Below, in pieces: positions 15,293 to 54,776 of a stretch of 55,284 nt of DNA. A program made the translations under genes and the position numbers. The stretch's first letter is position 1. Every line of letters begins with the position of its first letter. This DNA comes from a virus (lineage: Duplodnaviria > Heunggongvirae > Uroviricota > Caudoviricetes): IMG/VR virus record IMGVR_UViG_2648501186_000003, positions 1 through 55,284 of that record. The stretch is one strand, 5' to 3'. The notes under the pieces are model-generated. The model saw only the letters and a program-made list of their open reading frames with translations. It was not told the origin of the DNA and searched no databases.

Positions 15293-16597
15293 CTATATAA
15301 ACTTAGATACAATATCGTGAATCTGTTGTAGCGGGATATCTTCCATCTCATTCTTAATAAGAGAGCGGTTAGATGCTGTCAGTGAAGGCCATTTTGTTTT
15401 CCAGGCTAGATATGCTAGCCATGAGTAGCCAGTTTCGTAAGGTTTATTCATACAAGTCATTGAGTGTTCAACCGCTTGTATGTATTTTTTCTCAAAGTTG
15501 GTTCCTTTTACTTCAAATAAACTACCAAAATAAATAAGCCATTTTGCAAGGTGTTCATACTGTTCCCATGCGCCAGGCTTTTTAGTAAGTTCTATTTTTT
15601 TATCTATTATATTACAAAAAACATTTAATACATTTTCATTATTCCAGCTATATCCAGATGATGAAATGGAGGAAATGATATGATAAAAAGAATCCTCTAG
15701 CTTCAAGAACTCTATTTTATACTCTCTTCCGTTTTTTATTACCGATTTGATTGAGTGCCTCAATTTGTCTTTTATTTTTTTTGCTTCTGGAATTTTATCG
15801 TTAAGTTTTCTAAAGAAATCAGATACCTCTGTTTTATCTATAACCCTAACCCCATAGCAGGAAAAATAGTAATCTTTAATAGGTTGCAATAGTTCCCCTC
15901 GGGAAACAAGGAAAATATTGGAGGACATTACGTTGTCCCGTGAAAATACCTTATATTCATTTATAATAGCCTTTAGGTTCGCGTCACTTAGAGAATAGCC
16001 AAGGATAACAATAGTGTTTTCATGTAGAACTGTGCTTAGTTTATTAGAAAAGTAAGAATTACCATTTATAAATCTGAAATAATCCTCGCTAGTAACAACC
16101 ATGTCTGATGGGGAGTCTATAGAACCGTGAACATGGTAGACTTTAACCTCACAATTATATTTTGGAATTGGCAGGCCGGGGGTGATTGTACAAGTTCGAT
16201 TCTCTCCAGCCAGCTTTTCTGCTAACTTGTCATAATTTGTCGTAATTACTTTAAATGTGTTTTCTTTGAAAAAGTCTTGAATATATTCAATTGATGGATC
16301 AAGTTCGATTGAGGCTATGATTTTCTCAATCTCTTGGTAAATATTTTTCCCCGAAAGTATAAGTTTTAGTGCAATAACCTGAGCAGCTTCTTCAAGGCTA
16401 AGGTCTTTTGCTTTTCCATCAGGAAATAATTCCTCTTTGAGTGAGTCACCATCCTTCAATAAACCGCACAGTTGCTCCAATAAAGATTGCCAACTTGGGG
16501 CTTTATCATCAGAAACAGCCTTTGAAAATCCAGTGCCTGTAAGAAAGCACAGCCTATGTGTAGCCGCTGCATAGGCAATTTCTATATACTCGCTCAT
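15293..16597 (-). CDS. SIR2-domain protein (sirtuin-like NADase, ThsA-type catalytic signatures)
   Basis: Motifs FLTGTGFS (Rossmann), TTNYD (N121) and HVHGS (H157); strongly AT-rich compared with neighbours. Confidence 0.7.
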   Translation of the reverse strand: MSEYIEIAYAAATHRLCFLTGTGFSKAVSDDKAPSWQSLLEQLCGLLKDGDSLKEELFPDGKAKDLSLEEAAQVIALKLILSGKNIYQEIEKIIASIELDPSIEYIQDFFKENTFKVITTNYDKLAEKLAGENRTCTITPGLPIPKYNCEVKVYHVHGSIDSPSDMVVTSEDYFRFINGNSYFSNKLSTVLHENTIVILGYSLSDANLKAIINEYKVFSRDNVMSSNIFLVSRGELLQPIKDYYFSCYGVRVIDKTEVSDFFRKLNDKIPEAKKIKDKLRHSIKSVIKNGREYKIEFLKLEDSFYHIISSISSSGYSWNNENVLNVFCNIIDKKIELTKKPGAWEQYEHLAKWLIYFGSLFEVKGTNFEKKYIQAVEHSMTCMNKPYETGYSWLAYLAWKTKWPSLTASNRSLIKNEMEDIPLQQIHDIVSKFI

Positions 16598-17295: not shown

Positions 17296-17554
17296 AGCGC
17301 CCCTACAAAAAAGAAAAGCCACCAGCGGCGGCTTAGCAATACAACTGAAGGTAGCGCCCGGTACTCAGACTGTGCCGTCCATGGAATATTTGAAAAGGGA
17401 TCCATCCGTACCGGGCGTGTGATGATTCTGACTGAAGTCACTTGTCAGTTGTCAATCATTTATCATTAAAAATAATATATTTATTAGTGCATACAAATAA
17501 GACACTAAGTGTGCACATTGCAACCTCAGAGAGGAAACATTCAACCAGCCTGTA

Positions 17555-17571
17555 ATTGCTCTAATGAATTT
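17555..17571 (+). promoter_or_regulatory. C1-operator-like site (16/17)
   Basis: attgctctaatgaattt; a weaker second site lies at about 17476-17493. Confidence 0.5.
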
Positions 17572-17889
17572 GATTTTTTGGGGCGGAAATACTACCATTG
17601 TACGCCAGACTATTGATCTTCCTGTTGTTCAGGCTTATAGTTCCTACGTCGTAGCAAATTCTGCGACCGGGTTTGACAGCCTGAATGTACATGCGGACAA
17701 CCGCAGATATCCGCATATTGCGGTATTTTTGTGTCCGTAAAACCACGTTACGCCCGAATTATGGTGGGGCGTGATGGGGAGGCTTCGGCCTGCTGGTTTC
17801 ATGTACGCCAGTCTGTCAACCCCGTCACGTCCTGCCACCTGTTTGACAGCGGGTAGCAGGTTGTTAAACCTGTACATGAGGCCGTAACT

Positions 17890-18111
17890 ATGGTTAATGC
17901 CAATCCTTGCGCACACCCTGAATTTATCTGGCGCTTTTACTCCTGCCAGAAACGTCACTATCACTTCGTTATCGCACCAACAGAAGATGAGGCACGTTCT
18001 CAGCTTCCGGATGCTCCCTGTATTTTCTCTGCCCGCTTTTCTACCGATTTGCGCAATTCTCTCAGTTACTGGTGCCTCCCTGTTAACGCTTCTGCTCAGG
18101 AGGGGCTATGA
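17890..18111 (+). CDS. Icd-like small protein (73 aa), coupled to the downstream antirepressor
   Basis: Stop overlaps the antirepressor ATG (ATGA); a 73-aa paralog sits at 23960-24181. Confidence 0.5.
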   Translation: MVNANPCAHPEFIWRFYSCQKRHYHFVIAPTEDEARSQLPDAPCIFSARFSTDLRNSLSYWCLPVNASAQEGL

Positions 18112-19166
18112 GAACGTCATTAGTCACCCGTGAAGAGATGATCGAGGCAATTGAACAGCACACTGCCTGTATCAGTACCAGGGATATACCTGGCGTTATT
18201 GCCAACTACTTCATGATCACCAAACAACTTTACCGGAGAAAGGACAAAAACGCGGTTCACCGCATTCTGCTGTCTGATATCCGTGAATACCTGCTCGAAC
18301 AGGGGCATCTGAATTACGCAACCGTCGCAGCCGAAACACGCAAGGAGGCACACAGAATGAAAGCAAGCAAACCAGATGTTGTCGTTACAAAGCCTTTGAC
18401 AGCAACCACACCAGCAACGGCCATGGATGCTATCCCCAACACCGGAGACACAATCGACAGCCAGACGCTGTTAAAGATGGTCAATGAAGCGCGGAAATTA
18501 TGTAGCGAAAAACCAGTTCGCAATAATGATTTTATTGCCAGAGTTAAGGATGAACTGGATGGTGAGTACTACGAAATTTTCGTAGTGCAAAAATTAAACA
18601 ACACAACATCTGAAACTATCTCCATGACCTACAAACAAGCCCTGCGAGTTGCCGCGCGCGAGTCAAAAGCGGTCCGCCGTTCGCTGATCGACAAACTGGA
18701 GGAATTGCAGCAGGCTAGCACTGCTTCTCCAGTGATTCCCCAAACACTCCCCGAAGCTCTGCGCCTGGCTGCCGAGCTGGCTGAACAAAAGCAACTTCTG
18801 GAACAGAAAGCCCACCAGCTAAATCAGCAGCTGGTGGCCGCCGCTCCTAAAGTCGATTTTGCCGACCGGGTATCAGTAGCTAAAGGGATCCTGATTGGGA
18901 ATTTTGCAAAGGTTGTTGGACTTAAGCAAAACGCGCTGTTTGCCTGGTTACGGGAGAACGGCATCCTGATAGCGTCCGGTGGACGTAAAAATGTGCCGTT
19001 CCAGCAATACATCAACGCTGGGTATTTTTCTGTGAAAGAAGTGGTGCTGGATGATGAAGATGGCTATCAGATACGACTGACGCCCCAGTTAACGGGGAAA
19101 GGCCAGCAGTGGTTGACGCGTAAACTGCTCGATGCTGGCTTGTTAAAACCGGTGGCGGCTGAATGA
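17917..19166. repeat. Left arm of a roughly 1.2-kb inverted duplication (leader, icd-like and antirepressor ends)
   Basis: Near-identical to the reverse complement of about 22845-24153 at the N- and C-terminal coding parts; the central part is diverged. Confidence 0.7.
18108..19166 (+). CDS. Phage antirepressor-like protein with KilAC-type C-terminal domain (copy 1)
   Basis: C-terminal 150 aa are identical to the 372-aa paralog; the first ~75 aa are near-identical; the middle domain differs. Confidence 0.65.
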   Translation: MRTSLVTREEMIEAIEQHTACISTRDIPGVIANYFMITKQLYRRKDKNAVHRILLSDIREYLLEQGHLNYATVAAETRKEAHRMKASKPDVVVTKPLTATTPATAMDAIPNTGDTIDSQTLLKMVNEARKLCSEKPVRNNDFIARVKDELDGEYYEIFVVQKLNNTTSETISMTYKQALRVAARESKAVRRSLIDKLEELQQASTASPVIPQTLPEALRLAAELAEQKQLLEQKAHQLNQQLVAAAPKVDFADRVSVAKGILIGNFAKVVGLKQNALFAWLRENGILIASGGRKNVPFQQYINAGYFSVKEVVLDDEDGYQIRLTPQLTGKGQQWLTRKLLDAGLLKPVAAE

Positions 19167-19168
19167 TT

Positions 19169-19192
19169 AAAAAAGGCGGCCTTGCGGCCGCC
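19169..19192 (-). terminator. Minus-strand intrinsic terminator
   Basis: ggcggcc-ttgc-ggccgcc with a run of T on the minus strand. Confidence 0.5.
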
Positions 19193-19413
19193 AATGATGT
19201 CACGGAGTCTATAATGGCAATGTGAATGTCTTCGTAGTTGACTAAAGCCACAACTCAATTATAACAATTAATTATAGCAATGGTGGCTATTTTATTTATC
19301 GCGAATCACATTTTTTCTCTTCAGTACCTGTGTGCTATACTCCTTCTTGATTGATTGGATGCGGAATACAAACCCGCTCTTTTGTGCAGCCTGGCTCCTT
19401 GCCAGGCTTTTTT

Positions 19414-19725
19414 TTATTTCATCATGGAAGCTGTTAACGCTTTGGACCTTGCTGAACTGATTGAGAGGACTTTGTCAACGTGCCCCAAAAATTCGCCAAA
19501 CTCAGACATCACTTTAGCAAAACCGCGCCGTGCTTCTTCCTCGGTGGCGTTCATCACGAAATGTTCAGCACCACGCATACTTTTGACAGGGAACGCAACG
19601 GATATTGAGTCAATATCTGGCATTCTATCGCTCAGCTTTACAGTGACAATGACGGCTGGCGACTGAATATTAGTGCTTACAGACAGCACTACATATTTTC
19701 CGTCGATGTTGAAATTCTTTCTCAT
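19414..19725 (-). CDS. Small protein downstream of cre (P1 cra position)
   Basis: 103-aa ORF co-oriented with cre; named by synteny only. Confidence 0.45.
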   Translation of the reverse strand: MRKNFNIDGKYVVLSVSTNIQSPAVIVTVKLSDRMPDIDSISVAFPVKSMRGAEHFVMNATEEEARRGFAKVMSEFGEFLGHVDKVLSISSARSKALTASMMK

Positions 19726-19775
19726 ATGTCGCCATAAATATCAAAGAATTAGAGCAATCATTTACGCGTTAATGG

Positions 19776-20807
19776 CTAATCGCCATCTTCCAGCAGGCGC
19801 ACCATTGCCCCTGTTTCACTATCCAGGTTACGGATATAGTTCATGACAATATTTACGTTGGTCCAGCCACCAGCTTGCATGATCTCCGGTATTGAAACTC
19901 CGGCGCGGGCCATATCTCGCGCGGCTCCGACACGGGCACTGTGTCCAGACCAGGCCAGGTATCTCTGACCAGAGTCATCCTTAGCGCCGTAAATCAATCG
20001 ATGAGTTGCTTCAAAAATCCCTTCCAGGGCGCGAGTTGATAGCTGGCTGGTGGCAGATGGCGCAGCTACGCCATTTTTTCTGACACGGCAAAACAAGTAG
20101 TTATTCGGATCATCAGCCACACCAGAGACAGAAATCCATCGCTCGACCAGTTTAGTTACCCCCAGGCTAAGTGCCTTCTCTACACCAGCGGTACTAACCA
20201 GCGTTTTCGTTCTGCCAATATGGATTAACATTCTCCCACCGTCTGTACGTGAGATATCTTTAACCCTGATCCTGGCAATTTCGGCTATACGTAACAGGGT
20301 GTTATAAGCAATCCCCAGAAATGCCAGATTACGTATATCCTGGCAGCGATCGCTATTTTCCATGAGTGAACGAACCTGGTCGAAATCAGTGCGTTCGAAC
20401 GCCAGTGCCTGTTTTGCACGTTCACCGGCATCAACGTTTTCTTTTCGGATCCGTCGCATGACCAGTGAAACAGCATTACTGTCACTTGGTCGTGGCAGCC
20501 CGGACCGACGATGAAGCATGTTTAGCTGGCCCAAATGTTGCTGGATAGTTTTCACTGCCAGACCGCGCGCCTGAAGATATAGAAGATAATCGCGAACATC
20601 TTCAGGTTCTGCGGGAAACCACTTCCGGTTATTCAACTTGCACCATGCCGCCCACGACCGGCAAACGGACAGAAGCATTTTCCAGGTATGCTCAGAAAAC
20701 GCCTGGCGATCCCTGAACATGTCCATCAGGTTCTTGCGAACCTCATCACTCGTTGCATCGACCGGTAATGCAGGCAAATTTTGGTGTACGGTCAGTAAAT
20801 TGGACAT
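19776..20807 (-). CDS. cre: Cre tyrosine recombinase
   Basis: 343-aa translation matches P1 Cre as remembered (MSNLLTVHQNLPALPV...RLLEDGD). Confidence 0.97.
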   Translation of the reverse strand: MSNLLTVHQNLPALPVDATSDEVRKNLMDMFRDRQAFSEHTWKMLLSVCRSWAAWCKLNNRKWFPAEPEDVRDYLLYLQARGLAVKTIQQHLGQLNMLHRRSGLPRPSDSNAVSLVMRRIRKENVDAGERAKQALAFERTDFDQVRSLMENSDRCQDIRNLAFLGIAYNTLLRIAEIARIRVKDISRTDGGRMLIHIGRTKTLVSTAGVEKALSLGVTKLVERWISVSGVADDPNNYLFCRVRKNGVAAPSATSQLSTRALEGIFEATHRLIYGAKDDSGQRYLAWSGHSARVGAARDMARAGVSIPEIMQAGGWTNVNIVMNYIRNLDSETGAMVRLLEDGD

Positions 20808-21225
20808 TTAACACTCAGATGATGGTTTTAAGTAAAGTGTACAGGATCGGCTCTGCCTTTACCTGTTTATGGTTCTCGTCATAGAAACGCCAGCGACCGC
20901 GCGTGCGTTCTATTTTCTCTTCACCGAGCGATAATGACAGTTGGCAACTATCACGATCAAACCCTTTTGCCCGCCAGTAACCACGGTTTTTCTCAAGCTC
21001 AAGATGAGTGGACACTTTAGCAGTTGAATATCCCATTTTTCACCTCTGATTGATTGGTGGTGCTAAGTGCGCTACGCGAAATCTGTAGGACTAACACTGC
21101 CAACTTTTCACAGATTTTACGTAGCGCAACCTTGATCAAATGATCAAGTGATCACTATTTGACCTGCTAAGGTATTGAACTGTATGGATTTACAGGTAAA
21201 TTGATCATATTCAATAACCCTTAAG

Positions 21226-21259
21226 ATAACTTCGTATAATGTTCGCTATACGAAGTTAT
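21226..21259. other. lox recombination site with canonical 13-bp arms and a variant spacer
   Basis: ATAACTTCGTATA-ATGTTCGC-TATACGAAGTTAT; canonical loxP spacer is ATGTATGC. Confidence 0.9.
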
Positions 21260-21302
21260 CAGGTCCGAAGAGGAGTTTACGTCCAGCTGCGCACAAAAAT
21301 CA

Positions 21303-21319
21303 AGAATTATTAGAGCAAT
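21303..21319 (-). promoter_or_regulatory. C1-operator-like site (15/17)
   Basis: agaattattagagcaat. Confidence 0.45.
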
Positions 21320-21385
21320 AAATTTTGAGAGAAAAATCCCACTCCACCAGCTAAAAACTGGATTGTTTTTCATAGTTGTTTGACA

Positions 21386-21402
21386 ATTGCTCTAATAAAT
21401 TA
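21386..21402 (+). promoter_or_regulatory. C1-operator-like site (16/17), upstream of coi-c1
   Basis: attgctctaataaatta. Confidence 0.55.
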
Positions 21403-21640
21403 TAGTTTTGCCGACGTTACGTAATACGACTTTGGATTCACTATTTAATGTGTCTTCAGCGTTGTAGAGCGGCTCAGAAGGAAATGAGCAAACAGGGAAA
21501 CCTTATACAACGGCATTACAGCTATGCATTGCTCATCTTACACACAGCGCAATGTTGTTAGATTACCCCAGCATGGATCATGGGTGAAACAGTAGGTCAG
21601 AGCTTCAGGCTCTGTGTTGTCAATACAGTGAGGCATAATT

Positions 21641-21850
21641 ATGGCTTTCATTCAACCAACCATCGACGACGTTAGACATTGCTCTAACGCTTTATCTGTA
21701 GACCCTGCCGAAACCGACGCTGCCCGCGCCATTGCTGAACACTACTCAAAGATATCCAATCAGGAGTACCGCATCACCCAAGACGACCTGGATGACCTCA
21801 CTGACACAATCGAATATCTCATGGCAACTAACCAGTTAGACTCACAATAA
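21641..21850 (+). CDS. coi: C1 inactivator Coi
   Basis: 69-aa ORF immediately upstream of c1. Confidence 0.7.
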   Translation: MAFIQPTIDDVRHCSNALSVDPAETDAARAIAEHYSKISNQEYRITQDDLDDLTDTIEYLMATNQLDSQ

Positions 21851-21866
21851 ATGCACTAATAAATCT
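21850..21866 (+). promoter_or_regulatory. C1-operator-like site (14/17) between coi and c1
   Basis: aatgcactaataaatct. Confidence 0.4.
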
Positions 21867-21960
21867 ATTATTTTTGTTTGATCCCTCTATAATATAGGTC
21901 AGTAATGACCGGTTTTCTCAGCCGGGCGTTATTGACCATGTCAATTCTGGAGGAGGATCA

Positions 21961-22812
21961 ATGATAAATTATGTCTACGGCGAACAACTGTACCAGGAGT
22001 TCGTCAGCTTCAGGGATCTCTTTCTAAAAAAAGCTGTTGCACGCGCCCAACACGTTGATACAGCCAGCGACGGTCGTCCTGTACGCCCGGTTGTCGTTCT
22101 ACCGTTCAAAGAAACTGACAGCATTCAGGCTGAAATTGATAAATGGACTTTAATGGCGCGGGAACTGGAACAGTACCCAGACCTCAATATCCCAAAGACT
22201 ATTTTATATCCAGTGCCTAACATCCTTCGCGGTGTGCGCAAGGTTACAACTTATCAGACAGAAGCTGTGAACAGCGTCAACATGACCGCTGGCCGCATTA
22301 TTCATCTGATTGATAAGGACATTCGCATCCAAAAAAGCGCGGGGATCAATGAGCACAGTGCGAAATACATAGAGAACCTGGAAGCAACAAAAGAGCTAAT
22401 GAGGCAGTACCCGGAGGATGAAAAATTCCGTATGCGCGTACACGGCTTTAGCGAAACAATGCTGCGCGTCCACTACATTTCCAGTAGCCCTAACTACAAT
22501 GATGGTAAATCAGTTAGTTACCATGTGCCACTGTGTGGCGTGTTTATCTGCGATGAAACTCTCCGTGATGGAATTATCATCAACGGTGAATTCGAAAAAG
22601 CAAAATTTAGCCTTTATGACTCCATAGAACCGATCATCTGCGACCGCTGGCCGCAAGCAAAAATATATCGCCTGGCAGATATTGAAAATGTAAAAAAACA
22701 AATTGCCATCACTCGCGAAGAGAAAAAGGTTAAGTCAGCCGCATCAGTTACGCGCAGCCGTAAAACCAAGAAGGGGCAGCCAGTAAACGACAACCCCGAA
22801 AGCGCGCAATAA
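21961..22812 (+). CDS. c1: C1 repressor of lysogeny
   Basis: 283 aa, placed with coi next to lox and cre as in the P1 ImmC region. Confidence 0.85.
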   Translation: MINYVYGEQLYQEFVSFRDLFLKKAVARAQHVDTASDGRPVRPVVVLPFKETDSIQAEIDKWTLMARELEQYPDLNIPKTILYPVPNILRGVRKVTTYQTEAVNSVNMTAGRIIHLIDKDIRIQKSAGINEHSAKYIENLEATKELMRQYPEDEKFRMRVHGFSETMLRVHYISSSPNYNDGKSVSYHVPLCGVFICDETLRDGIIINGEFEKAKFSLYDSIEPIICDRWPQAKIYRLADIENVKKQIAITREEKKVKSAASVTRSRKTKKGQPVNDNPESAQ

Positions 22813-22815
22813 ATT

Positions 22816-22850
22816 ATGCCCGGCATCAACCGGGCATTCTTCCATTATTC
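22816..22850. terminator. Hairpin terminator between convergent c1 and antirepressor copy 2
   Basis: tgcccgg-catcaa-ccgggca followed by a T-rich stretch. Confidence 0.45.
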
Positions 22851-23963
22851 AGCCGCCACCGGTTTTAACAAGCCAGCATCGAGCAGTTTACGCGTCAGCC
22901 ACTGCTGGCCTTTACCCGTTAATTGAGGCGTCAACCGTATCTGGTAGCCATCTTCATCATCCAGCACCACTTCTTTCACCGTGAAATACCCCGCATTGAT
23001 GTACTGCTGGAACGGCACATTTTTACGTCCACCGGACGCTATCAGGATGCCGTTCTCCCGTAACCAGGCAAACAGCGCGTTTTGCTTAAGTCCAACAACC
23101 TTTGCAAAATTCCCAATCAGGATCCCTTTAGCTACTGATACCCGGTCGGCAAAATCGACCTTAGGAGCGGCGGCCACCAGCTGCTGATTTAGCTGGTGGG
23201 CTTTCTGTTCCAGAAGTTGCTTTTGTTCAGCCAGTTCGGCAGCCAGGCGTAGGGCTTCAGGAAGCGTCTGGGGGATTGCGATCGGTTGCTGTTCTTTTTG
23301 TCGGAAGTAGCTGTCTTCCAGTTTTTCAAAGAATGCCCATGCCTGATCGGTTTCGAGCATTTTAGCGTGGCGGGCTGCGCCGCGTTCTGTCCAGAGGGTG
23401 AGTGAGCGAACATTGCGAGCAATTTTTACAGAGTAGTTTAAAGCTACTCTGTGCTTCAACTCGCGCAATGATTCTCCTTCAACTTTGAAAAAGTGCTTCC
23501 CTTCAACAAAGCGTACTTTGTTCTCATGATGATTTTGGCGAATACGGATTGTTTCTGTCCCATACCCTCTAGCAAGAGTCTCGGTTGTCACTACACGCAC
23601 TCCCTGCCATTCCAGAACGGGAATTTCATCAGACTGATTCTGAACAACCACCAGCTCCGATTCCTGAACTGAAGGTGCATGAATTTTTTCTGATTTAACG
23701 TTAGTTGCTTTCATTCTGTGTGCCTCCTTGCGTGCTTCGGCTGCGGCGGTTGCGTAATTCAGATGACCCTGTTCGAGCAGGTATTCGCGGATATCAGACA
23801 ACAGGATACGGTGAACCGCGTTCTTGTCCTTTCTCCGGTAAAGTTGTTTGGTGATCATGAAGTAGTTGGCAATAACGCCTGGTATATCCCTGGTACTGAT
23901 ACAGGCAGTGTGCTGTTCAATTGCCTCGATCATCTCTTCACGGGTGACTAATGACGTTCTCAT
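22845..23963 (-). CDS. Phage antirepressor-like protein with Bro-N/ANT-type middle domain and KilAC C-terminal domain (copy 2)
   Basis: 372 aa; shares its N-terminal ~75 aa and C-terminal 150 aa with the copy at 18108-19166. Confidence 0.65.
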   Translation of the reverse strand: MRTSLVTREEMIEAIEQHTACISTRDIPGVIANYFMITKQLYRRKDKNAVHRILLSDIREYLLEQGHLNYATAAAEARKEAHRMKATNVKSEKIHAPSVQESELVVVQNQSDEIPVLEWQGVRVVTTETLARGYGTETIRIRQNHHENKVRFVEGKHFFKVEGESLRELKHRVALNYSVKIARNVRSLTLWTERGAARHAKMLETDQAWAFFEKLEDSYFRQKEQQPIAIPQTLPEALRLAAELAEQKQLLEQKAHQLNQQLVAAAPKVDFADRVSVAKGILIGNFAKVVGLKQNALFAWLRENGILIASGGRKNVPFQQYINAGYFTVKEVVLDDEDGYQIRLTPQLTGKGQQWLTRKLLDAGLLKPVAAE

Positions 23964-24153
23964 AGTCCCTCCTGAGCAGAAGCGTTAACAGGGAGGCACC
24001 AGTAACTGAGAGAATTGCGTGAATCAGTGGAAAAACGGGCAGAGAAAATACATGGGGCGTCAGGAAGCTGAGAGCGGGCCTCATCTTCTGTTGGTGCAAT
24101 AACGAAGTGATAGTGACGTTTTTGGCAGGAGTAAAAGCGCCAGATAAATTCAG
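22845..24153. repeat. Right arm of the inverted duplication
   Basis: Reverse complement matches 17917-19166 at both ends. Confidence 0.7.
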
Positions 24154-24181
24154 GATGAGTTGGGGTAGGGATAGTAGCCAT
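23960..24181 (-). CDS. Icd-like small protein (73 aa), coupled to antirepressor copy 2
   Basis: Residues 10-73 are near-identical to the 17890-18111 ORF; ATGA overlap with the antirepressor start. Confidence 0.5.
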   Translation of the reverse strand: MATIPTPTHPEFIWRFYSCQKRHYHFVIAPTEDEARSQLPDAPCIFSARFSTDSRNSLSYWCLPVNASAQEGL

Positions 24182-24500
24182 ATTGGCAGCCTCCTTAGAC
24201 GTTGGTATGTAACCACCGCAGAAGAGACCAATCTTGCTGGCGGTGGACTGTACGGAGTTGGCCTTACTGGCGTCCAAGGTAACCAGCCTACCCGAAGGTA
24301 GCCCCATACAGCCCACCATTGTAGAGGTGTGCGTGTACGCCGATACAAAAAAAAGACGCGAGCGGCGTCTGTATCGCCTTAGACTTAAGCGGGAGGCCAA
24401 TCCCGGCACCCGTTTTAATGAGGTGCCTGATAAGCATAAACCGAAAATGCCTCAAGGCGCAAGAGGTCAGGCTCAATGTAACATCGGTAGTTAAAAAACA

Positions 24501-24517
24501 CAATTTATTAGAGCAAA
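24501..24517 (-). promoter_or_regulatory. C1-operator-like site (15/17)
   Basis: caatttattagagcaaa, upstream of the icd-antirepressor copy 2 leader. Confidence 0.5.
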
Positions 24518-24520
24518 TAT

Positions 24521-26005
24521 TCATTCATTAAGCCATGCCAGAGCCTCATCAACCTGCGCTTCGTCTTCGACGCTAAGCACTTCATCCTGGGGAACATAAT
24601 CCGCCAGCATAGCGAAACAATATGTATCCCAATGGTCTGGTGAGTGCAGGTTGAGTTTTTTCTTCATATCCTCCTTACTCATCACCTTCCATTGACCTGC
24701 GGAGTTAATCCCTACAGGGATTTTCGACGCTTCCTCAATAGTTTCATTACCCTTATCCAGTCTCATACGACCAGATTTTACGGCCTCTGCGGCTTGAACG
24801 TTGGCATAAGCACGTTTATCAAAGTACAGGCTCTTATCTTCACGGCTATGCATCTTTTTACCCCAGCGTATACGCTGTACGGTAATACCATAATGCTCGT
24901 ACATCAGATCCGCCGTTGCTTTACCCAGGCCATCGCCGTCGATCGCTATGGTGATATTTGGGAATCGCTCAGGATTACATTCTGCGAAAATTTTGGCGGC
25001 AAGCTGCGTTTCTGTAACGTCTGTGTATTCCAGCATTCGATAGTTGATTACACGGCGTTTATTTCGCTGGCCGGACACCATCATGATATTGATAACGGAC
25101 TTATCCCGTCCCGTACCACCAGCAACGTCCACACATGCAAGCCAGCCCCATCCTTTTGCAATCTTGACTTTCCGCCGCGTTGCACGTTCAACCTCATCAC
25201 GTCCAAGAAGGAAGCCATCCTGTGATTTAGGGAATAGGCCGCGTACCTTAATCATGTACATAGGGTTATCACGCCCGCCGTACTCCGCCAGCTTCATTTT
25301 GATAAATGCTGGCGTTACCAGCGGTGATTCCTCACTGTTAAGCGTGATCGCCGTATAAACGCCATCAGGGTTACCAGGACGCTTGGCCAGTTTATGGTGA
25401 GTATCGTAGAAATAGCCGCTTGGGCGTGTAGGCTGTGACAGCAATAAGATGCGGTTATCCTGTCCGGTAAGAGCACCGGTGATGATACCGAAAGCTCTAT
25501 CACTGACACCGGAGGCTTCATCGATAATATACAGAAGATGATCTGCGTGTTCACCTGCGAGAGCTTCTTCACTTCCCAGACGAAAGCCCTTCGGTACTAC
25601 AGTCCATACACCTTTACCAGTAACTTCATAAAAAGCGGTTTCTGTCAGAACAAAATAATCAGCAAGCCACGGAAAACGGCTGGTGGCCGTAGCCCAGTTT
25701 ATCTTGATGTACTTGAATATACCGGTCATTACCTGCTGAATTTTGTTCGCAACGATAATGGCACGGGCACCGGGATACATGATTATGAACAACATGATCA
25801 TGATAGAAGTCATGTCTGATTTCCCGGTACCGTGACCAGACGAAACAGATGTCTTGCTACCCTGTTCCTGCACAGACTCAATAATCAGATCCTGCTGCCA
25901 GGTAGGTGTTTTGCCGAACAAAACATCAGCGGCCGCAATCCAGTCATAACGATATAGCGCCACCAGCTCGCGCCAACGTGGATCCGTTACGCAACTTCTG
26001 GCCAT
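24521..26005 (-). CDS. pacB: Terminase large subunit PacB
   Basis: 494 aa; ATPase Walker A (GHGTGKSD) and nuclease region; coupled to pacA. Confidence 0.85.
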
Positions 26006-42339: not shown

Positions 42340-43557
42340 ATGCCAACTGAATATGCTCGCGACAACCTTGGTCGCTATCAGACTGATGGATTAAGTGCAA
42401 AAGACTTTAATAAGGTCTTCGATCTTATCCGTAAACAGCAGCGTCAGAATCGGCGAAACGCGCGACGTACACTCACTCCAAGGATTATGGGGATGCGCAA
42501 CCGCGAACTTGAGGCATTCCTCAGCCTTGGGAAAAAGAAAGATGGCACCTACTTTACGCCCGAAGATATACGCAGTTTCAACACCTCAAGGCAGGCTCAT
42601 AAAACCAAATTCAAGAGCACGGTACCCGGCATTACCTATGCTCAGCTGGTGGCGCAGTCCACCAGCATTGATATAAAACGCGCTAACAACAAAGTTTCTG
42701 ATGGCACAGGGATCAAAGCCGCGACATTCCTCGGGCTAAAACACAACCTTGCATTGATATCTGTTAATGCCTCGGATGAGTCGGTCCACCAGCATCACCG
42801 TGTCAGAATTCGATTTGAGGAATGGGATAAAGCCGTTGAGGATATTGCTGAAGACGGTGCGAAAAAAGCCCGAATCGCTGCCGATCTCTGCAAGGGCCGG
42901 GTATCTTTCGACTGTGATTGTGGACGCCATCAATACTGGTATCGTTATATGGCCACTGCTGGTAACTATGCTGTCGCGCCGCCAAAAGAGTATGCCTTCC
43001 CCAAGATCCGCAACCCTGATCTGACTGGTGTGGCTTGCAAACATGTTTTGCACGCTATGACGCGTTTTCAGTCTCCCACATGGCACAAGGCCATCATTAT
43101 TGCCCTAGAAAAAGCAGCTGAACAGGTGGCCTTCGGCGATGACAAGCGGAAGACAACAACCTATTTCAAAGGCGAACTGACTAAATCGCTTGCGCGCAAC
43201 CGGACAACAACGACGGATCAGGCTAAAGCGGCGCGTGAGTATGAGCTGTATCTGAAATCTCAGGATGCATTAGGCAAAAAACTACGCGCCAAAGATAGCG
43301 CCACGGACAACGTTCGCCGGTTGTTAAAAAAAGCTCGCACCACGGCAAACAGGAAGAATGCCGAACTAAAAGCCTCGCGGGTGAGGGAAGCCCAGGCTCG
43401 CGCTGAAGCCGACGCCCTCAAAAAAGCCCTGCAAACGCAGGCGAACAACCTCATAAAGTTTTTCATGAGTCAGGGAATGGACAAGGCCGCTGCCACTGCG
43501 CAGGCGCGAAGCATTCTTGAGACACAAATTAACGAAGCCCGTAAACGGAAAGGATAA
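42340..43557 (+). CDS. SWIM-type zinc-finger protein with basic coiled-coil C-terminus
   Basis: FDCDCG...GVACKHVLHAM (CxC...CxH). Confidence 0.5.
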   Translation: MPTEYARDNLGRYQTDGLSAKDFNKVFDLIRKQQRQNRRNARRTLTPRIMGMRNRELEAFLSLGKKKDGTYFTPEDIRSFNTSRQAHKTKFKSTVPGITYAQLVAQSTSIDIKRANNKVSDGTGIKAATFLGLKHNLALISVNASDESVHQHHRVRIRFEEWDKAVEDIAEDGAKKARIAADLCKGRVSFDCDCGRHQYWYRYMATAGNYAVAPPKEYAFPKIRNPDLTGVACKHVLHAMTRFQSPTWHKAIIIALEKAAEQVAFGDDKRKTTTYFKGELTKSLARNRTTTTDQAKAAREYELYLKSQDALGKKLRAKDSATDNVRRLLKKARTTANRKNAELKASRVREAQARAEADALKKALQTQANNLIKFFMSQGMDKAAATAQARSILETQINEARKRKG

Positions 43558-46704
<3,147 letters not shown>

Positions 46705-46706
46705 GA

Positions 46707-46735
46707 AAAGCCCGGCGTTCGGGCTTTTCTGTTAT
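46707..46735. terminator. Bidirectional terminator between convergent genes
   Basis: aaagcccg-gcgttc-gggcttt with T-runs on both strands. Confidence 0.6.
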
Positions 46736-46750
46736 GACGGGTTCAATTTT

Positions 46751-47752
46751 TTATCCGTTACCGCGCGACGGTTTCTGCGTGACAAACGTCTCAAGCATCT
46801 TTTCCGCAATTGCCGACCAGGTGTGACACTGGACCTTTTCAGCATTTTTCACGCGATCAACGCGAGCAATAACCTCATCCCAATCAATCCGCGACTTGAT
46901 AACCATATGGTTCACCAAAGCCAGGCGATCTGGCGGAAGGCAATCGGGAGGCGTTAATACCAACGCCCCGCACATTGCCGCCTCAAGTACAGTTAATCCA
47001 AGGCTTTCGGGATGCGTAACGATAAACACGTCACTCTTACGCAATTCAGCTGCAAATTCGGTTGCTGGTACCGGCGTCCGTCTGTATGGGGTTACCGATA
47101 TATTCCCCGGATCAATGGTAATCAATCCGTCATCGGTCAACGTTCTGGCCTCATACGGAACGGTCAGACGCTGAAGGTTCATAAGGATACTTAAGGAGTG
47201 ATCAAACCCACTAACATCAAATGCAGCGTGGTCTACAAAAATACGCAGAACATCGTCTGTTTTGGTTTCCAGATGGAACAGATCCTGATTCGCTGCCCAT
47301 CCAACATGTTTGTTAAAGCGATTATGACGCTCTAACCTGCCTGGATTATCCAGGTACCGCCAGGTATCATCGCGGACAGTAAAAGTAATATCGACTGGTG
47401 CCGAATCCAGCATAGAACCGTCGTATACCTGGGCTACCCATCCAGTGAATCGACGACGCAGTTGCACGCCTATTTCCCTGGGCACCGTAGTAAAATACCG
47501 CAATCCTGGCGCTAAAATGGCTTTCGCGGAACACGAGGTCGCAGCGGTCAACACAGCTTCAACATAATCCTCCGGGCTTTCGACGCCGGGGGAATATGGA
47601 CGATGGTATTGCAATGTTACCCCTGCCTCACTAAAGGCGCAGGCCAGGTTGTAAGCCCACATTTCCGTATATGTTTTCACATCACTGATAGCTTCAAATT
47701 TTCGCCCAATGATCAGGATGTTCATCGGCTTTTCCTCATTCCATTGCATCAA
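46751..47752 (-). CDS. GT-B (GT4-like) glycosyltransferase-like protein
   Basis: EX7E-type motif THPESLGLTVLEAAMCGALVL; stop/start overlap with ban. Confidence 0.5.
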   Translation of the reverse strand: MMQWNEEKPMNILIIGRKFEAISDVKTYTEMWAYNLACAFSEAGVTLQYHRPYSPGVESPEDYVEAVLTAATSCSAKAILAPGLRYFTTVPREIGVQLRRRFTGWVAQVYDGSMLDSAPVDITFTVRDDTWRYLDNPGRLERHNRFNKHVGWAANQDLFHLETKTDDVLRIFVDHAAFDVSGFDHSLSILMNLQRLTVPYEARTLTDDGLITIDPGNISVTPYRRTPVPATEFAAELRKSDVFIVTHPESLGLTVLEAAMCGALVLTPPDCLPPDRLALVNHMVIKSRIDWDEVIARVDRVKNAEKVQCHTWSAIAEKMLETFVTQKPSRGNG

Positions 47753-49113
47753 TAATCCTCTTGCCAGTCAGCACCAGCATAGTTATCAAACCGTGAGTAT
47801 TGGCCGTTAAAAGCCAATCTCACCGTGCCAATTGGGCCATTTCGTTGCTTACCGATAATCACCTCGGCAATGCCCTTCATTTCGCTATCCGGGTGATAAA
47901 CTTCGTCGCGATACAGAAACATGATCAGGTCTGCGTCCTGCTCAATTGCTCCTGATTCACGTAAATCTGAATTTACCGGTCGTTTGTCCGCACGCTGTTC
48001 AAGCGATCGATTAAGTTGTGACAATGCCACCACCGGTACTTGTAATTCCTTCGCCAAAGCCTTCAGTGAGCGAGAAATCTCGGCAATTTCCAGCGTTCGG
48101 TTATCTTGCAGCTCGGGGACGCGCATAAGTTGCAGGTAGTCGATCATAATCATGCTCAAACCACCATTTTCTTTATAAACACGACGAGCGCGGGAACGAA
48201 GCTCTGTAGGTGTCAAGGCGCTTGAGTCATCAATAAAAATATTCTGCTTGTCCAACAGAATCCCCATTGCGCCAGAAACCCGCGCCCAATCCTCGTCGTT
48301 AAGTTGCCCTGTTCGAATACGAGTCTGATCAACGCGTGCAAGAGAAGCCAGTGAGCGCATCATCAGCTGGTGGCTCGGCATCTCAAGGCTAAAAACCAAT
48401 ACGGGCTTATCGTTACGGACTGCGGCATTTTCGACGAGATTCATCGCAAACGTAGTCTTCCCCATAGATGGGCGGGCGGCGACAATGATGAGATCGGACG
48501 GCTGAAGCCCTGCCGTCTTCTTATTGAGATCGGTAAATCCGGTATCAAGCCCCGTTACACCATCATGCGGTCGCTGAAACAACTCTTCTATGCGAGATAC
48601 CGTTGCATCGAGAATGCTGGCGATATCTTTTGGACCACTACCGCTCTTTTGTCGTTTTTCAGCTATTTCAAAAACGCGGCGCTCGGCCATATCCAGCAAT
48701 TCATTGCTGCCCCTGCCATCTTGCGCATATCCAGCTTCAGCTATTTCATTTGCGACGGAAATCATTTCACGAACAACCGCGCGTTCACGAACGATATCCG
48801 CATAAGCACAAATATTTGCCGCGCTGGGCGTGTTCTTTGACATCTCCGCAAGGTACGCAAAACCACCAGCACGTTCTAATTTACCGTTCTGTTCAAGTGC
48901 TTCAGCAAGTGTTATCAAATCAATCGGTTTGCCATGACTTAATAACCTCTCCATCTCACTGAAAATTTCACGATGAGCACTGGTATAAAAATCATCAGCA
49001 ACTATACGATCTGCAACTTCATCCCAGCGGCAGTTATCAAGCATTAAGCCACCAAGCACAGCTTGTTCTGCACTAAGGGAATTTGGCATGGATTCAAGAG
49101 GGGATGCAGACAT
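47749..49113 (-). CDS. ban: DnaB-family replicative helicase (P1 Ban)
   Basis: 454 aa; Walker A GKT (ARPSMGKTTFAMN) and DnaB N-terminal domain. Confidence 0.9.
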   Translation of the reverse strand: MSASPLESMPNSLSAEQAVLGGLMLDNCRWDEVADRIVADDFYTSAHREIFSEMERLLSHGKPIDLITLAEALEQNGKLERAGGFAYLAEMSKNTPSAANICAYADIVRERAVVREMISVANEIAEAGYAQDGRGSNELLDMAERRVFEIAEKRQKSGSGPKDIASILDATVSRIEELFQRPHDGVTGLDTGFTDLNKKTAGLQPSDLIIVAARPSMGKTTFAMNLVENAAVRNDKPVLVFSLEMPSHQLMMRSLASLARVDQTRIRTGQLNDEDWARVSGAMGILLDKQNIFIDDSSALTPTELRSRARRVYKENGGLSMIMIDYLQLMRVPELQDNRTLEIAEISRSLKALAKELQVPVVALSQLNRSLEQRADKRPVNSDLRESGAIEQDADLIMFLYRDEVYHPDSEMKGIAEVIIGKQRNGPIGTVRLAFNGQYSRFDNYAGADWQEDY

Positions 49114-49393
49114 TAATACTCCATCCTGGTGTGCTGAATGTCAGATATAATCGGCATACTCAAATCACTCCTAACGATATGAGTCATCACCAGAAAATCA
49201 GGATTAATGCGCCGGACTCTTCCCGGCTGTCACACCGAATCGCCAGGATGGTGAATCCGCAGTCCGACGCTATGAACGGGGCTTGCACATTCCGGCTACC
49301 TGGTTTGTTGCCTGAGCTAGGGGAAAGGTTACCCCTTTAACGTCACCAGACCGCTAACGACGCATGTGCCAGACGCCGTGTTACAACCAAATA

Positions 49394-49469
49394 TGGTGGC
49401 CCCTACCGGACTTGAACCGGTGACCGTGCGATTATGAGTCGCCAGCTCTAACCACTGAGCTAAAGGGCC
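49394..49469 (-). tRNA. tRNA with CAT anticodon (tRNA-Ile2 lysidine-type or Met), CCA encoded
   Basis: Cloverleaf folded by hand: 7-bp acceptor, D-arm GCTCAGTGGTTAGAGC, anticodon loop CTCATAA, T-arm CCGGTTCAAGTCCGG; resembles E. coli ileX as remembered. Confidence 0.8.
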
Positions 49470-49472
49470 GGA

Positions 49473-49580
49473 TTACTGTTTCCTGAGTGCTTCTATGACG
49501 CCAGCAATACCGCCTACAACTATGCCAGCAATGACAACGAGAACAATTGGATGCTTGTCAGCAAAATCCCAGAAGCCCAT
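49473..49580 (-). CDS. Tiny membrane peptide (35 aa), P1 tciC position
   Basis: ATG overlaps the upstream stop (TGATG); MGFWDFADKHPIVLVVIAGIVVGGIAGVIEALRKQ. Confidence 0.45.
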   Translation of the reverse strand: MGFWDFADKHPIVLVVIAGIVVGGIAGVIEALRKQ

Positions 49581-49744
49581 CACTGATCCTTAGAAGCTGT
49601 TTTTAATATCGGCCATACCAATGTTACAGCTACTGCCACCAACGCCCCGTCCGATAAAACTGACAGGATTGTGCTGGTGAAATCCACCAGCACGGACAGC
49701 AAGAGAAAACCAATGGCGATTGCGATACGTGCCTTGCTTGCCAT
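49580..49744 (-). CDS. Small membrane protein (54 aa), P1 tciB position
   Basis: ATG overlaps the tciA stop (TAATG); hydrophobic. Confidence 0.45.
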   Translation of the reverse strand: MASKARIAIAIGFLLLSVLVDFTSTILSVLSDGALVAVAVTLVWPILKTASKDQ

Positions 49745-50178
49745 TACAGATAATCTTCCACACGAAGACCTAAACGACGGCCTACTTCTTCCAGTACTTT
49801 GTGTTCTGCTGGCTCGATTTCACCGTCCGCTTCTGCAATTGTCAGCATGTTAACGAATACTTCTTCCGCTTCTTTTGGATCGTTTTTGATATCTTCAATT
49901 TCGCGAAGGATATTCATGCGACCAACACGGAAGCCAGCTTCCAGTTGCTCGGTAAAGCGGGTAATTGTTGCAGTAATTTCGTTACCAAAATGACTAAGAC
50001 GCGGATTAGAGCGGACAAGCTGATCAAGTTTCGCTGTTTCTTCTTTTTCGATTTCACCATCAGCGGCAGACACCAACAAACAGCCACCGATAATGGCCTC
50101 CATCAGATCGCGATTCTCAACTTTTTTCAGCTCTACTTTTGCAGAAGCGACTTTCTTGCCGAACAATTTACCGAACAT
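49744..50178 (-). CDS. tciA: TerB-like protein
   Basis: 144 aa with two TerB-like repeats (SAADGEIEKEE / AEADGEIEPAE). Confidence 0.65.
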   Translation of the reverse strand: MFGKLFGKKVASAKVELKKVENRDLMEAIIGGCLLVSAADGEIEKEETAKLDQLVRSNPRLSHFGNEITATITRFTEQLEAGFRVGRMNILREIEDIKNDPKEAEEVFVNMLTIAEADGEIEPAEHKVLEEVGRRLGLRVEDYL

Positions 50179-50319
50179 TGGTTATCCCTCAATAAAAGTG
50201 ACATATTTATTAGATTGCGGTACCGAGTGCCTCCCGGTGACGTTAACCAGTTAATAATTAACGCCGGAATGTTTAACCATTAAGGAGGATTGTTTTAACT
50301 GTTCCGCGTGCGCTTAGCC

Positions 50320-50396
50320 GCATTCACCGCAACGGAAAGAGCATTCCTGGTGGACCTGTAGATTGGGATATGAACCCGTTACAGGAGAATGCTCTT
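50320..50396. repeat. Copy 1 of a repeated hairpin element with a conserved 25-nt core (gtagattgggatatgaacccgttac)
   Basis: 10-bp stem (aagagcattc / gaatgctctt) encloses the core; shares the gcattcacc prefix with copy 2. Confidence 0.5.
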
Positions 50397-50580
50397 ACCT
50401 GTTACGTGCTCCGTTTCGTGGAGCTAACGGCGGGTGATCGGGCCGCACCAGACTGGACTTATTTCAGCGTTATGCTCATGCCAGAGAATCAAACTGTGAT
50501 GGTCGGTGCTGAACTCCGACACAGGGTTGTAGCAAGCCCCGCAAAGCGCGCACTACTGTAGTTGCGGCACATCAGCCTGT

Positions 50581-50680
50581 GCATTCACCACAATGTTGAG
50601 AACACTGGTTGTCACGCTGCAACGCAACATTTATTCGTAGATTGGGATATGACCCCGTTACGCCAGTGTTCTCAACGTTG
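50581..50680. repeat. Copy 2 of the repeated hairpin element (core gtagattgggatatgaccccgttac)
   Basis: 18-bp stem (caatgttgagaacactgg / ccagtgttctcaacgttg) encloses the core. Confidence 0.5.
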
Positions 50681-50827
50681 TAGTGCCGGTTACGGTTCCG
50701 GCCAGGCCTCTTCCTCAACGGGGTGTTCTCCATACGGACTACCGTTTATTGGTCGTTCCTGCGGTTTATGTTGTGAAGCCAGATGCTTATCTTCTGGTTG
50801 CTTCAAAGAGCTGCACTTCCTCACAAC

Positions 50828-50901
50828 GGTAAGGGTACTTCGTAGGGATTCGAACCCTCTGCCAAGCTCGGCGATCTCCGACGTCGCAAAATACCCTTAC
50901 C
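50828..50901 (-). ncRNA. tRNA-like element (canonical T-arm GGGTTCGAATCCC inside a 10-bp terminal stem); possible degenerate tRNA or processing hairpin
   Basis: Perfect 10-bp terminal inverted repeat GGTAAGGGTA/TACCCTTACC; no clean D or anticodon arm found by hand. Confidence 0.3.
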
Positions 50902-50909
50902 TGTTGTGT

Positions 50910-50984
50910 TGGTGCGGTTAACGGACTCGAACCGCTGACATCCTGCTTACAAGGCAGGCGCTCTACCAACTGAGCTAAACCGGC
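50910..50984 (-). tRNA. tRNA-Thr (anticodon TGT) with an imperfect acceptor stem
   Basis: D-arm GCTCAGTTGGTAGAGC, anticodon stem-loop CCTGC-CTTGTAA-GCAGG, T-arm GGTTCGAGTCC; the 3' acceptor strand appears one nt short. Confidence 0.65.
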
Positions 50985-50986
50985 AT

Positions 50987-51062
50987 TGGCGATGGTGGAT
51001 GGATTTGAACCATCGACCCGTTGATTAACAGTCAACTGCTCTAACCGCTGAGCTACACCATC
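50987..51062 (-). tRNA. tRNA-Asn (anticodon GTT)
   Basis: Acceptor GATGGTG/CACCATC, anticodon loop CTGTTAA, T-arm GATGGTTCAAATCCATC, CCA encoded; lies 2 nt upstream of tRNA-Thr. Confidence 0.8.
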
Positions 51063-51727
51063 ACTTGCCGGGTACGTCTCCGGCGAGGGCTTCCACCTCC
51101 GTATGCTTTTCGGCGCACCGCGCCCTGGCTGCAATTCGGTAACAGGGGATGCATAACCCTGGCTTCCAGCGTGATTAGCGCTTTCAGCATGACGGGATAT
51201 ACCCGTAAATTCGTGGAACTGTACCCAAAGTGCTGTTAAGCACCGCTGTTACGCTGAAAAGAAGACGCAACAGGAAAGGACGCTGACCAACAGATGGCCC
51301 CTTCTCGTTCATCTGGTTAATCACACCAGCGCCCTTACCTGTTGTGCCTCCCCGTTCCCTAATACACAGACGGGGACACTCTGCGGTCGATTTTTTGACG
51401 GGGGACGACTCATACCCCGTGGCGCCTGGCTTCTTAGGCCGCTACCATCATCAGATCATCGTTTGCATTTACTTTAATGGTCAGTTTCTAAACCGCCGCA
51501 AAGTCGCTAACCATGACGAAAACCCTGAAAAAAACGCCCACCCGAAGATGGGCAAACTGGAAGCTCGTAACGCACTTCGGCGTTGCCACTTAGGCGCATG
51601 GTCAACCTGGCAACTCGGTGGTTTGTCTGGGAGGACTAGGCCCAGCCATGCTTACCGCCGCGCCTATTGCGGCTAACAGCTAAATCGCTCTATAAATCAC
51701 GATTCATTGAGGCGATATTACACTAAT

Positions 51728-51744
51728 AAATATATTAGAGCAAT
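51728..51744 (-). promoter_or_regulatory. C1-operator-like site (16/17), overlapping a second divergent 14/17 site at 51716-51732
   Basis: aaatatattagagcaat, at the 3' end of dmt. Confidence 0.45.
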
Positions 51745-54700: not shown

Positions 54701-54776
54701 GCATACCCAACGTTTCCCAGGCAATACTCGCGGCTTCAATTCCACTGCAAACAGATCCATAGCACAGCTCTTTCAC
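51735..54776 (-). CDS. dmt: Bifunctional DNA methyltransferase: N-terminal C5-cytosine methyltransferase interrupted by an intein, C-terminal Dam-like N6-adenine methyltransferase
   Basis: C5 motifs: GGTP|intein|CQAFSIAG (PCQ) and ENV. Dam motifs: [23 protein letters not shown] start. Confidence 0.85.
53523..54545 (-). mobile_element. Intein (341 aa) with LAGLIDADG homing-endonuclease domain, inserted in the PCQ motif of the C5-methyltransferase
   Basis: Starts CFTAGHMVL...PIEDV, has a TxxH block (TTNDHPF), [10 protein letters not shown] and [10 protein letters not shown] motifs, and ends [21 protein letters not shown] followed by Cys (+1). Confidence 0.8.

Follow-up and report, generated by a model that had tools for sequence, protein, structure and literature searches.

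The stretch of DNA analysed here, below called the window, comprises 55,284 nucleotides (nt) of a Caudoviricetes virus (IMG/VR record IMGVR_UViG_2648501186_000003, positions 1 to 55,284) and is part of a P1-like phage-plasmid. In this window the segment that carries c8, cre, cra, lox, coi and c1 is bracketed by two cassettes of the type found in the ImmI immunity region of P1 and P7, each with a C4 antisense RNA gene, icd and the nested antirepressor genes ant1 and ant2. The left cassette lies on the plus strand and the right cassette on the minus strand. The features of the left cassette are:

17493..19168 (+): left ImmI-type cassette, delimited by blastn against P1
17555..17571 (+): C1 operator ATTGCTCTAATGAATTT, one mismatch, at the position of P1 Oc4/Op51
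17613..17641 (+): promoter-like site TTGATC-17-TATAGT, aligning with P1 P1c4 (P51b)
17635..17687 (+): c4-a1b1 element, Rfam RF03163, 54.5 bits
17673-17679 and 17687-17693 (+): a1 TTGACAG and b1 GTACATG
17711-17723 (+): terminator-like hairpin between a1/b1 and C4
17757..17842 (+): C4 antisense RNA, Rfam RF01695, 70.7 bits, and fold
17800-17806 and 17813-17819 (+): b' CATGTAC and a' CTGTCAA
17843-17849 and 17872-17878 (+): a2 and b2, just 5' of the icd ribosome-binding site, perfectly complementary to a' and b'
17890..18111 (+): icd, 73 aa, NF033153, E = 2.5e-13, and alignment with P1/P7 Icd
18108..19166 (+): ant1, 352 aa, with a P1/P7-like middle and a KilAC C-terminus
18357-18359 (+): ant2 start Met84, internal to ant1, with AGGAGG upstream

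The right cassette consists of:

22812..24522 (-): right ImmI-type cassette; P1 homology stops at 22811 and restarts at 24523
24501..24517 (-): C1 operator TTTGCTCTAATAAATTG, two mismatches, at the position of P1 Oc4
24349..24426 (-): IsrK-like a1/b1 element, Rfam RF01394, 60.8 bits (gathering score 50)
24400-24394 and 24384-24377 (-): a1 TTGGCCT and b1 GTCTAAGG
24370-24354 (-): terminator hairpin followed by a T-run, at the end of the IsrK-like element
24236..24323 (-): C4 antisense RNA, Rfam RF01695, 75.9 bits, and fold
24279-24272 and 24264-24258 (-): b' CCTTGGAC and a' AGGCCAA
24231-24225 and 24200-24193 (-): a2 TTGGTCT and b2 GTCTAAGG, the latter overlapping the icd Shine-Dalgarno sequence AAGGAGG
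23960..24181 (-): icd, 73 aa, NF033153, E = 2.5e-13
22845..23963 (-): ant1, 372 aa, ORF6N PF10543 (E = 2e-19) and KilAC PF03374 (E = 1e-31)
23714-23712 (-): ant2 start Met84, internal to ant1, with AGGAGG upstream

When the left and right leaders are aligned with the annotated ImmI leaders of P1 and P7, every part falls in register, in the order C1 operator and promoter, a1/b1 with a hairpin, C4, a2/b2 over the icd ribosome-binding site and the start of icd, with ant1/ant2 following. The left leader is almost the same as that of P1, the b elements excepted. A preliminary description of this DNA, made from its sequence, had noticed the resemblance to ImmI, the C1-operator-like sites and a 73-aa Icd-like open reading frame (ORF) with an overlapping stop, and had raised the possibility of a c4-like antisense RNA. 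All four points are borne out: both operators sit at the Oc4 position, Icd and Ant match their P1/P7 counterparts, and both leaders score far enough on the Rfam C4 family (gathering score 45) and carry matching a1/b1 and a2/b2 elements. The C1 operators belong to a set of 15 matches in the window, where 0.29 would be expected by chance. In both arms the icd stop overlaps the ant start as ATGA, and icd is, as far as the sequence tells, translationally coupled to ant1/ant2. The terminator-like hairpin between a1/b1 and C4 is present in both cassettes and in P1 too, and could yield a short IsrK-like decoy RNA in addition to read-through transcripts.

The two antirepressors, AntL and AntR, share a KilAC C-terminus (PF03374; E = 2.2e-31 left, 9.7e-32 right). 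AntL is collinear with P1/P7 Ant1 along its whole length. AntR resembles P1/P7 Ant1 in its N-terminal 83 residues and its C-terminus but has a different middle, an ORF6N domain in place of the P1/P7-like one, and the preliminary description was right to note near-identical ends around unlike middles. This mosaic boundary coincides with the conserved ant2 start, Met84 with AGGAGG upstream, so that what varies is the N-terminal domain of Ant2. Both arms have this start, as do 25 of the 27 Ant proteins examined. Neither Pfam nor NCBIfam profiles matched c8, mat, coi or the P1-type middle domain of Ant. In an Escherichia albertii plasmid (L014, 1408-2805), the Ant at the left position has 465 aa and carries the P1-type and ORF6N middles in tandem.

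Neither arm has the canonical ImmI context of sim upstream and kilA-repL downstream. The left cassette lies between mat and c8, and the right one between pacB and c1. On the left, P1 homology stops at 17492 (P1 2629) and restarts at 19169 (P1 2069) in blastn comparison, and the cassette is an exact replacement of the P1 ref ORF in the opposite orientation, with the Omat operator and the ref leader remaining. In P1 the c1 and pacB stops are 27 bp apart, and the right cassette takes the place of this spacer. Such exact boundaries indicate two discrete insertions and not a relocation of ImmI. The preliminary description had pictured ImmI as duplicated and placed around ImmC; this picture does not hold, as near-identical plasmids retain a canonical c4-icd-ant-kilA-repL locus at the usual site, a third copy, and the flanking cassettes are therefore additional to it. 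On the same ground we rejected an ImmI that had moved instead of being added. The flanking payloads are about 94% identical to each other at the nucleotide level, and their identity to the canonical copy is 70% for icd and the ant N-terminus and 80% for the ant C-terminus. The leaders are of different classes, P1-type c4-a1b1 on the left and isrK-type on the right; as the insertion boundaries differ as well, the two cassettes look like separate acquisitions with a common payload.

The arrangement is recurrent. At least 150 of 670 records have the right junction, and at least 56 of 706 have the left one. The whole 8-kb arrangement with both arms is carried by at least 46 complete plasmids that were assembled independently and stem from several countries and hosts and from E. 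coli, E. albertii, E. fergusonii and Shigella. This number of independent assemblies led us to reject an assembly artefact.

The cassettes differ in their antisense keys, i.e., in the a and b sequences with which C4 and its targets would recognize each other:

P1: a TTGACAG, b GTTAGTG
P7 and the canonical copy (in relatives): a TTAGCAG, b GATTGTG
left cassette: a TTGACAG, b GTACATG
right cassette: a TTGGCCT (a1) / TTGGTCT (a2), b GTCTAAGG

The canonical C4 is P7-type; the left C4 joins the P1-type a to a new b, and the right one belongs to an isrK-class leader. In each cassette a1, a' and a2 vary in step, as do b1, b' and b2. The four C4 RNAs share one fold, in which the hairpin 2 loop holds b' and a single-stranded stretch holds a'. 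Cognate pairs are fully complementary (7/7 or 8/8), and non-cognate pairs are mismatched at one or both elements; the left key against that of P1, for instance, gives 7/7 for a and 5/7 for b. Pairing was judged by counts of paired positions, duplex energies of such short loop segments being noisy from off-site pairing.

The same covariation is seen on a larger scale. A pattern scan of IMG/VR returned 120 P1-class C4 genes, and among the 113 cassettes in which all four target elements could be read, the C4 pairs perfectly with all four of its own targets in 112. These cassettes hold 2 a alleles and 6 b alleles in 11 of the 12 possible combinations. Relatives of the window carry several a/b combinations at the left position and three isrK-class keys at the right position. 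In NZ_CP128972.1 (L012, 16552-28130; also L020) we find four c4-icd-ant cassettes, namely left, right, canonical and an extra one upstream of mat, and all four key combinations are different. Co-resident cassettes always differ among the genomes typed (the lineage of the window, CP128972, CP142921 and 7 IMG/VR contigs), including every one of the 7 contigs, which carry two or three P1-class cassettes each. The isrK-class leaders of relatives also contain Rfam C4 matches (L010 7525-7612, L017 7579-7666), and 40-aa coding sequences annotated there as 'ash family protein' (L010 7489-7608, L017 7543-7662, L021 10473-10592) are probably spurious, since they lie on the C4 RNA gene.

These data bear on the question of whether the arms could be functionless, either as decaying duplicates or as an artefact of assembly. 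In favour of this, the best-matching plasmid is a defective derivative of 68 kb with insertion sequences, and the annotation of the left ant is disrupted in one relative (L011). The sequence data speak strongly against it: icd and ant are intact in both arms, the compensatory covariation at three sites extends to 112 of 113 cassettes, the Ant2 start and the operators are conserved, and the arrangement recurs across the assemblies and species listed above. We consider decay or artefact hardly credible as an explanation, and the least probable of those weighed here.

The mechanism that we propose is modelled on the ImmI biology that has reportedly been worked out for P1 and P7. By analogy, C4 would be excised from the transcript of its own cassette, and its a' and b' loops would pair with a2 and b2, mask the icd ribosome-binding site and stop icd translation; with icd untranslated, ant would not be expressed. 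The upstream a1/b1 element could compete for C4. Ant, once made, would inactivate the C1 repressor. In Gifsy-1, IsrK, a homologue of the a1/b1 element, is a short trans-acting RNA that activates translation of the read-through transcript, with an antirepressor downstream (PMC4825925). As the canonical, left and right keys differ, a lysogen would supply three C4 species and would silence relatives that carry any such lock. Conversely, an invader would need only one cassette unmatched by the resident set of C4 RNAs to make Ant and override C1 immunity, and by stacking cassettes P1-like elements would be engaging in an arms race over immunity. We think it probable that both arms serve this P1-like phage-plasmid as immunity cassettes of the ImmI type, autonomous and additional, that they are stacked and heteroimmune, and that, as part of the same explanation, their inverted orientation is incidental. 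Most likely, the extra cassettes widen the immunity and anti-immunity range of the phage.

The main rival to stacked immunity, and one that does not exclude it, is cross-talk, whereby the extra Ants would inactivate the repressors of other resident prophages, e.g., Stx phages, instead of or besides C1, and so couple their inductions. The middle domains give this idea its substance. The ORF6N domain of AntR shares 63-68% identity with antirepressor segments of Stx1/Stx2 phages, the DNA of the AntL middle domain is about 92% identical to the antirepressor gene of Stx2a phages, and the middle domains are shuffled among positions, two being fused in one case. Trans-acting antirepressors that coordinate prophages are also documented in Salmonella (PMC3121763). 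The remainder of the proteins argues in the other direction: both ends, i.e., the N-terminal 83 aa and the KilAC C-terminus, resemble P1 Ant, AntL matches P1/P7 Ant1 collinearly over its whole length, and the cassettes bear C1 operators and adjoin c1, which wires them into the P1 circuit. On balance, we regard cross-talk as the role of the cassettes as unlikely.

The stacked-immunity interpretation has weaknesses of its own, which we set out together. Expression of the cassettes, C4 processing, binding of C1 by Ant and cross-immunity are all carried over from P1 and P7 by analogy. The target of the antirepressors may not be C1, given the ORF6N domain of AntR and an AntL middle domain that is common to lambdoid Stx phages. 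The best-matching record is the 68-kb defective derivative and is not identical to the window past about 42.6 kb, for which reason a canonical copy in the genome that the window belongs to is deduced from relatives. All-different keys in the IMG/VR sample would arise by chance in about 25% of cases (P about 0.25, not significant), so that the non-redundancy of keys within genomes is only suggestive. Finally, some co-resident cassettes share one element, as with the P1-type a of the left cassette and the common b of the extra (X) and left cassettes of CP128972; the argument therefore requires that both a and b match for repression.

The arms also form an inverted repeat. Two inverted pairs are the only repeats of at least 60 nt in the window: block 1 pairs 17914-18366 with 23705-24157 (453 nt, 95% identity) and block 2 pairs 18735-19190 with 22821-23276 (456 nt, 93% identity). 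In pairwise alignment, identity between the arms sets in about 8 codons into icd, runs to a few bases beyond ant codon 84, is lost across the ant middle and is regained over the C-terminal 145 codons. The gap between the inner arms measures 3630 nt and encloses cra and the following features:

19414..19725 (-): c8, lysogeny establishment; 96.7% identity to P1 1-2069, and annotations
19776..20807 (-): cre recombinase gene, by homology to P1
21226..21259 (-): lox with variant spacer GCGAACAT, by site search
21641..21850 (+): coi, 69 aa, by P1 homology
21961..22812 (+): c1 repressor gene, 283 aa, NF041318, 612 bits

An inverted duplication of about 1.2 kb had been described around the cre/lox/c1 segment. 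The bracketing and the bracketed segment are as described, but the size needs correction: the near-identical DNA amounts to about 0.9 kb in two blocks, and each arm is actually a cassette of 1.68-1.71 kb (17493-19168; 22812-24522). The long leaders that had been attributed to both arms are there; they are strongly diverged, align only loosely and are homologous in layout only. The lox site has the arms of loxP, and its spacer GCGAACAT differs from the canonical GCATACAT by two mismatches; it may be heterospecific to canonical loxP. Each ant stop is separated from the core genes that converge on it by a hairpin, at 19175-19192 (-) on the left and at 22816-22837 (-) on the right.

Such a structure suggests that recombination between the arms might flip cre-lox-coi-c1, as a switch or as two isomers in a population, and the preliminary description had raised this possibility. 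The means for it exist: the two blocks, with a longest identical run of 155 bp, would be sufficient for RecA-dependent exchange and make rare inversion possible, the arms of some relatives are homologous over about 1.3 kb, and in the block-1 tree the right-position sequences L010_R and L011_R stand among left-type sequences, suggesting that sequence has at some time passed from one position to the other. We built the inverted junction, with the cre side beside pacB, in silico and searched for it in PLSDB and in RefSeq E. coli. None of 708 records from PLSDB has it, and none of 704 from RefSeq E. coli, all of them consensus assemblies, in which a rare isomer of a subpopulation could go unseen; as a positive control, the native-order junction was joined in 544 of the 708 PLSDB records by the same search. 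Identity between arms is the same within records as between records (block 1, 94.1% vs 94.0%; block 2, 93.5% vs 93.5%) and in trees the arm copies group mainly by position, so there is no sign of ongoing homogenisation, and gene conversion between the arms was rejected as the dominant force. The boundaries have neither a site-specific recombinase nor a crossover site, and no gene structure would be altered by inversion. The inverted repeat around cre-lox-c1 is thus no inversion switch in any sequenced relative, and we hold an invertible segment to be very improbable. The Cin-cix system of P1, in which a site-specific serine recombinase produces both orientations in populations, can be set beside it. 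The window is like the P1 C-segment in having inverted repeats around a few kb of a P1-type genome, but here the arms are whole operons without a dedicated recombinase, in a single orientation in more than 700 records.

Returning to stacked immunity, we can tentatively extend it to a joint reading, which as one claim we regard as possible and no more than that. P1-like phage-plasmids would run a combinatorial, two-site antisense lock-and-key code, with at least 2 a alleles and at least 6 b alleles in P1-class leaders, at least 3 isrK-class keys and up to four non-redundant cassettes per genome. Repression would need a and b both to match. Each added cassette would widen both the range of relatives silenced and the range of lysogens overridden, in a multi-locus arms race instead of a P1/P7 dichotomy. 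Both cassettes are oriented toward ImmC, the left against c8-cre and the right against c1, so that read-through would be antisense to those genes, and derepressed cassettes could in this manner strengthen the switch, with antisense transcripts running into c1 and c8-cre.

The textbook account of heteroimmunity between P1 and P7 through the C4 antisense RNA knows two specificities, with a single locus in each phage. The element studied here has three such loci, and relatives have up to four, each with a key of its own. Across public genomes the alleles of these keys are freely reassorted, and compensatory change at three sites is near-perfect. P1-like phage-plasmids commonly carry resistance and virulence genes in E. 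coli. Should the cassettes work as proposed, they would set which P1-like phage-plasmids coexist, exclude or induce one another, a question that is practical as well as basic in view of this cargo. They would also constitute a natural set of orthogonal antisense RNA/target pairs.

Outside the cassettes, the window keeps the gene order of P1: pacA and pacB on the minus strand, then the right cassette, coi and c1 on the plus strand, lox, cra-cre-c8 on the minus strand, the left cassette, and mat on the minus strand. Positions 1-42625 are 99.99-100% identical to plasmid NZ_CP122664.1 of E. coli ETEC4073, an IS91 insertion in the latter apart. Positions 42626-55284 have no long match in this otherwise near-identical record. 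As this part is unmatched and IS91 is present only in the record, we rejected identity of the two; the source of the window is another plasmid, closely related to the record. At the place of the P1 res/mod genes lies a gene for a 434-aa SIR2_2-domain protein (15293-16597, minus strand), which is annotated as two coding sequences in the matching plasmid record. Its product weakly matches the sirtuin domains of the defence proteins Dsr1 and Dsr2, and we take this gene, which lies in the variable region beside mat, for a probable anti-phage defence gene. Three tRNA genes (49397-51062, minus strand) are usual for P1-like genomes.

Extra ant genes in P1-like elements have been seen before. Venturini et al. 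2019 (PMC6906374) report ant and two short ORFs between pacB and c1 in RCS47 and pTZ20_1P, which corresponds to our right cassette, and icd-ant1/2 homologues in the res-mod variable region of pSvP1, which resemble our left one. In that work the extra ant is mentioned in passing as inserted genes, with no C4 RNAs, targets or specificity alleles; the pair is not treated as an inverted repeat, nor is orientation examined in a population. In the literature that we searched, neither multiple C4 specificities nor stacked cassettes are described; the search did not extend to Gilcrease & Casjens 2018 or the P1 genome paper, where they may already have been reported.

Three known systems can be compared directly. 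In P4 immunity, a small RNA processed from the leader (CI RNA) likewise pairs with repeats on both sides (seqA/seqB/seqC; as summarised in PMC4825925), but the outcome is premature termination of the replication genes, and there is no icd/ant payload and no C1 operator. The Gifsy-1 isrK-orf45-anrP-isrJ locus of Salmonella (PMC4825925) resembles the right arm only, which has an IsrK-type element above the gathering score, a terminator, and then a processed small RNA region, a short ORF and an antirepressor. Unlike in Gifsy-1, the short ORF of the right arm is a P1-type icd of 73 aa, the antirepressor is P1-Ant-like, a C1 operator is present, no AntQ-type antiterminator is linked, and isrJ gives no Rfam match at the gathering threshold anywhere in the window. 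ImmI of P1 and P7 (Oc4-P51-c4-icd-ant1/ant2) has in common with the flanking cassettes the order of parts, a 73-aa icd coupled to ant, and nested ant1/ant2. The flanking cassettes differ from it in being extra copies at the ref position and in the pacB-c1 gap without kilA-repL downstream, in a payload of 70-80% nucleotide identity to the canonical copy with an ORF6N middle in the right Ant, and in new keys (left, b GTACATG; right, an isrK-class leader). In conclusion, the flanking cassettes are new paralogous variants of a known system and a real, recurrent feature, and their diversified, stacked antisense keys are the more interesting point.

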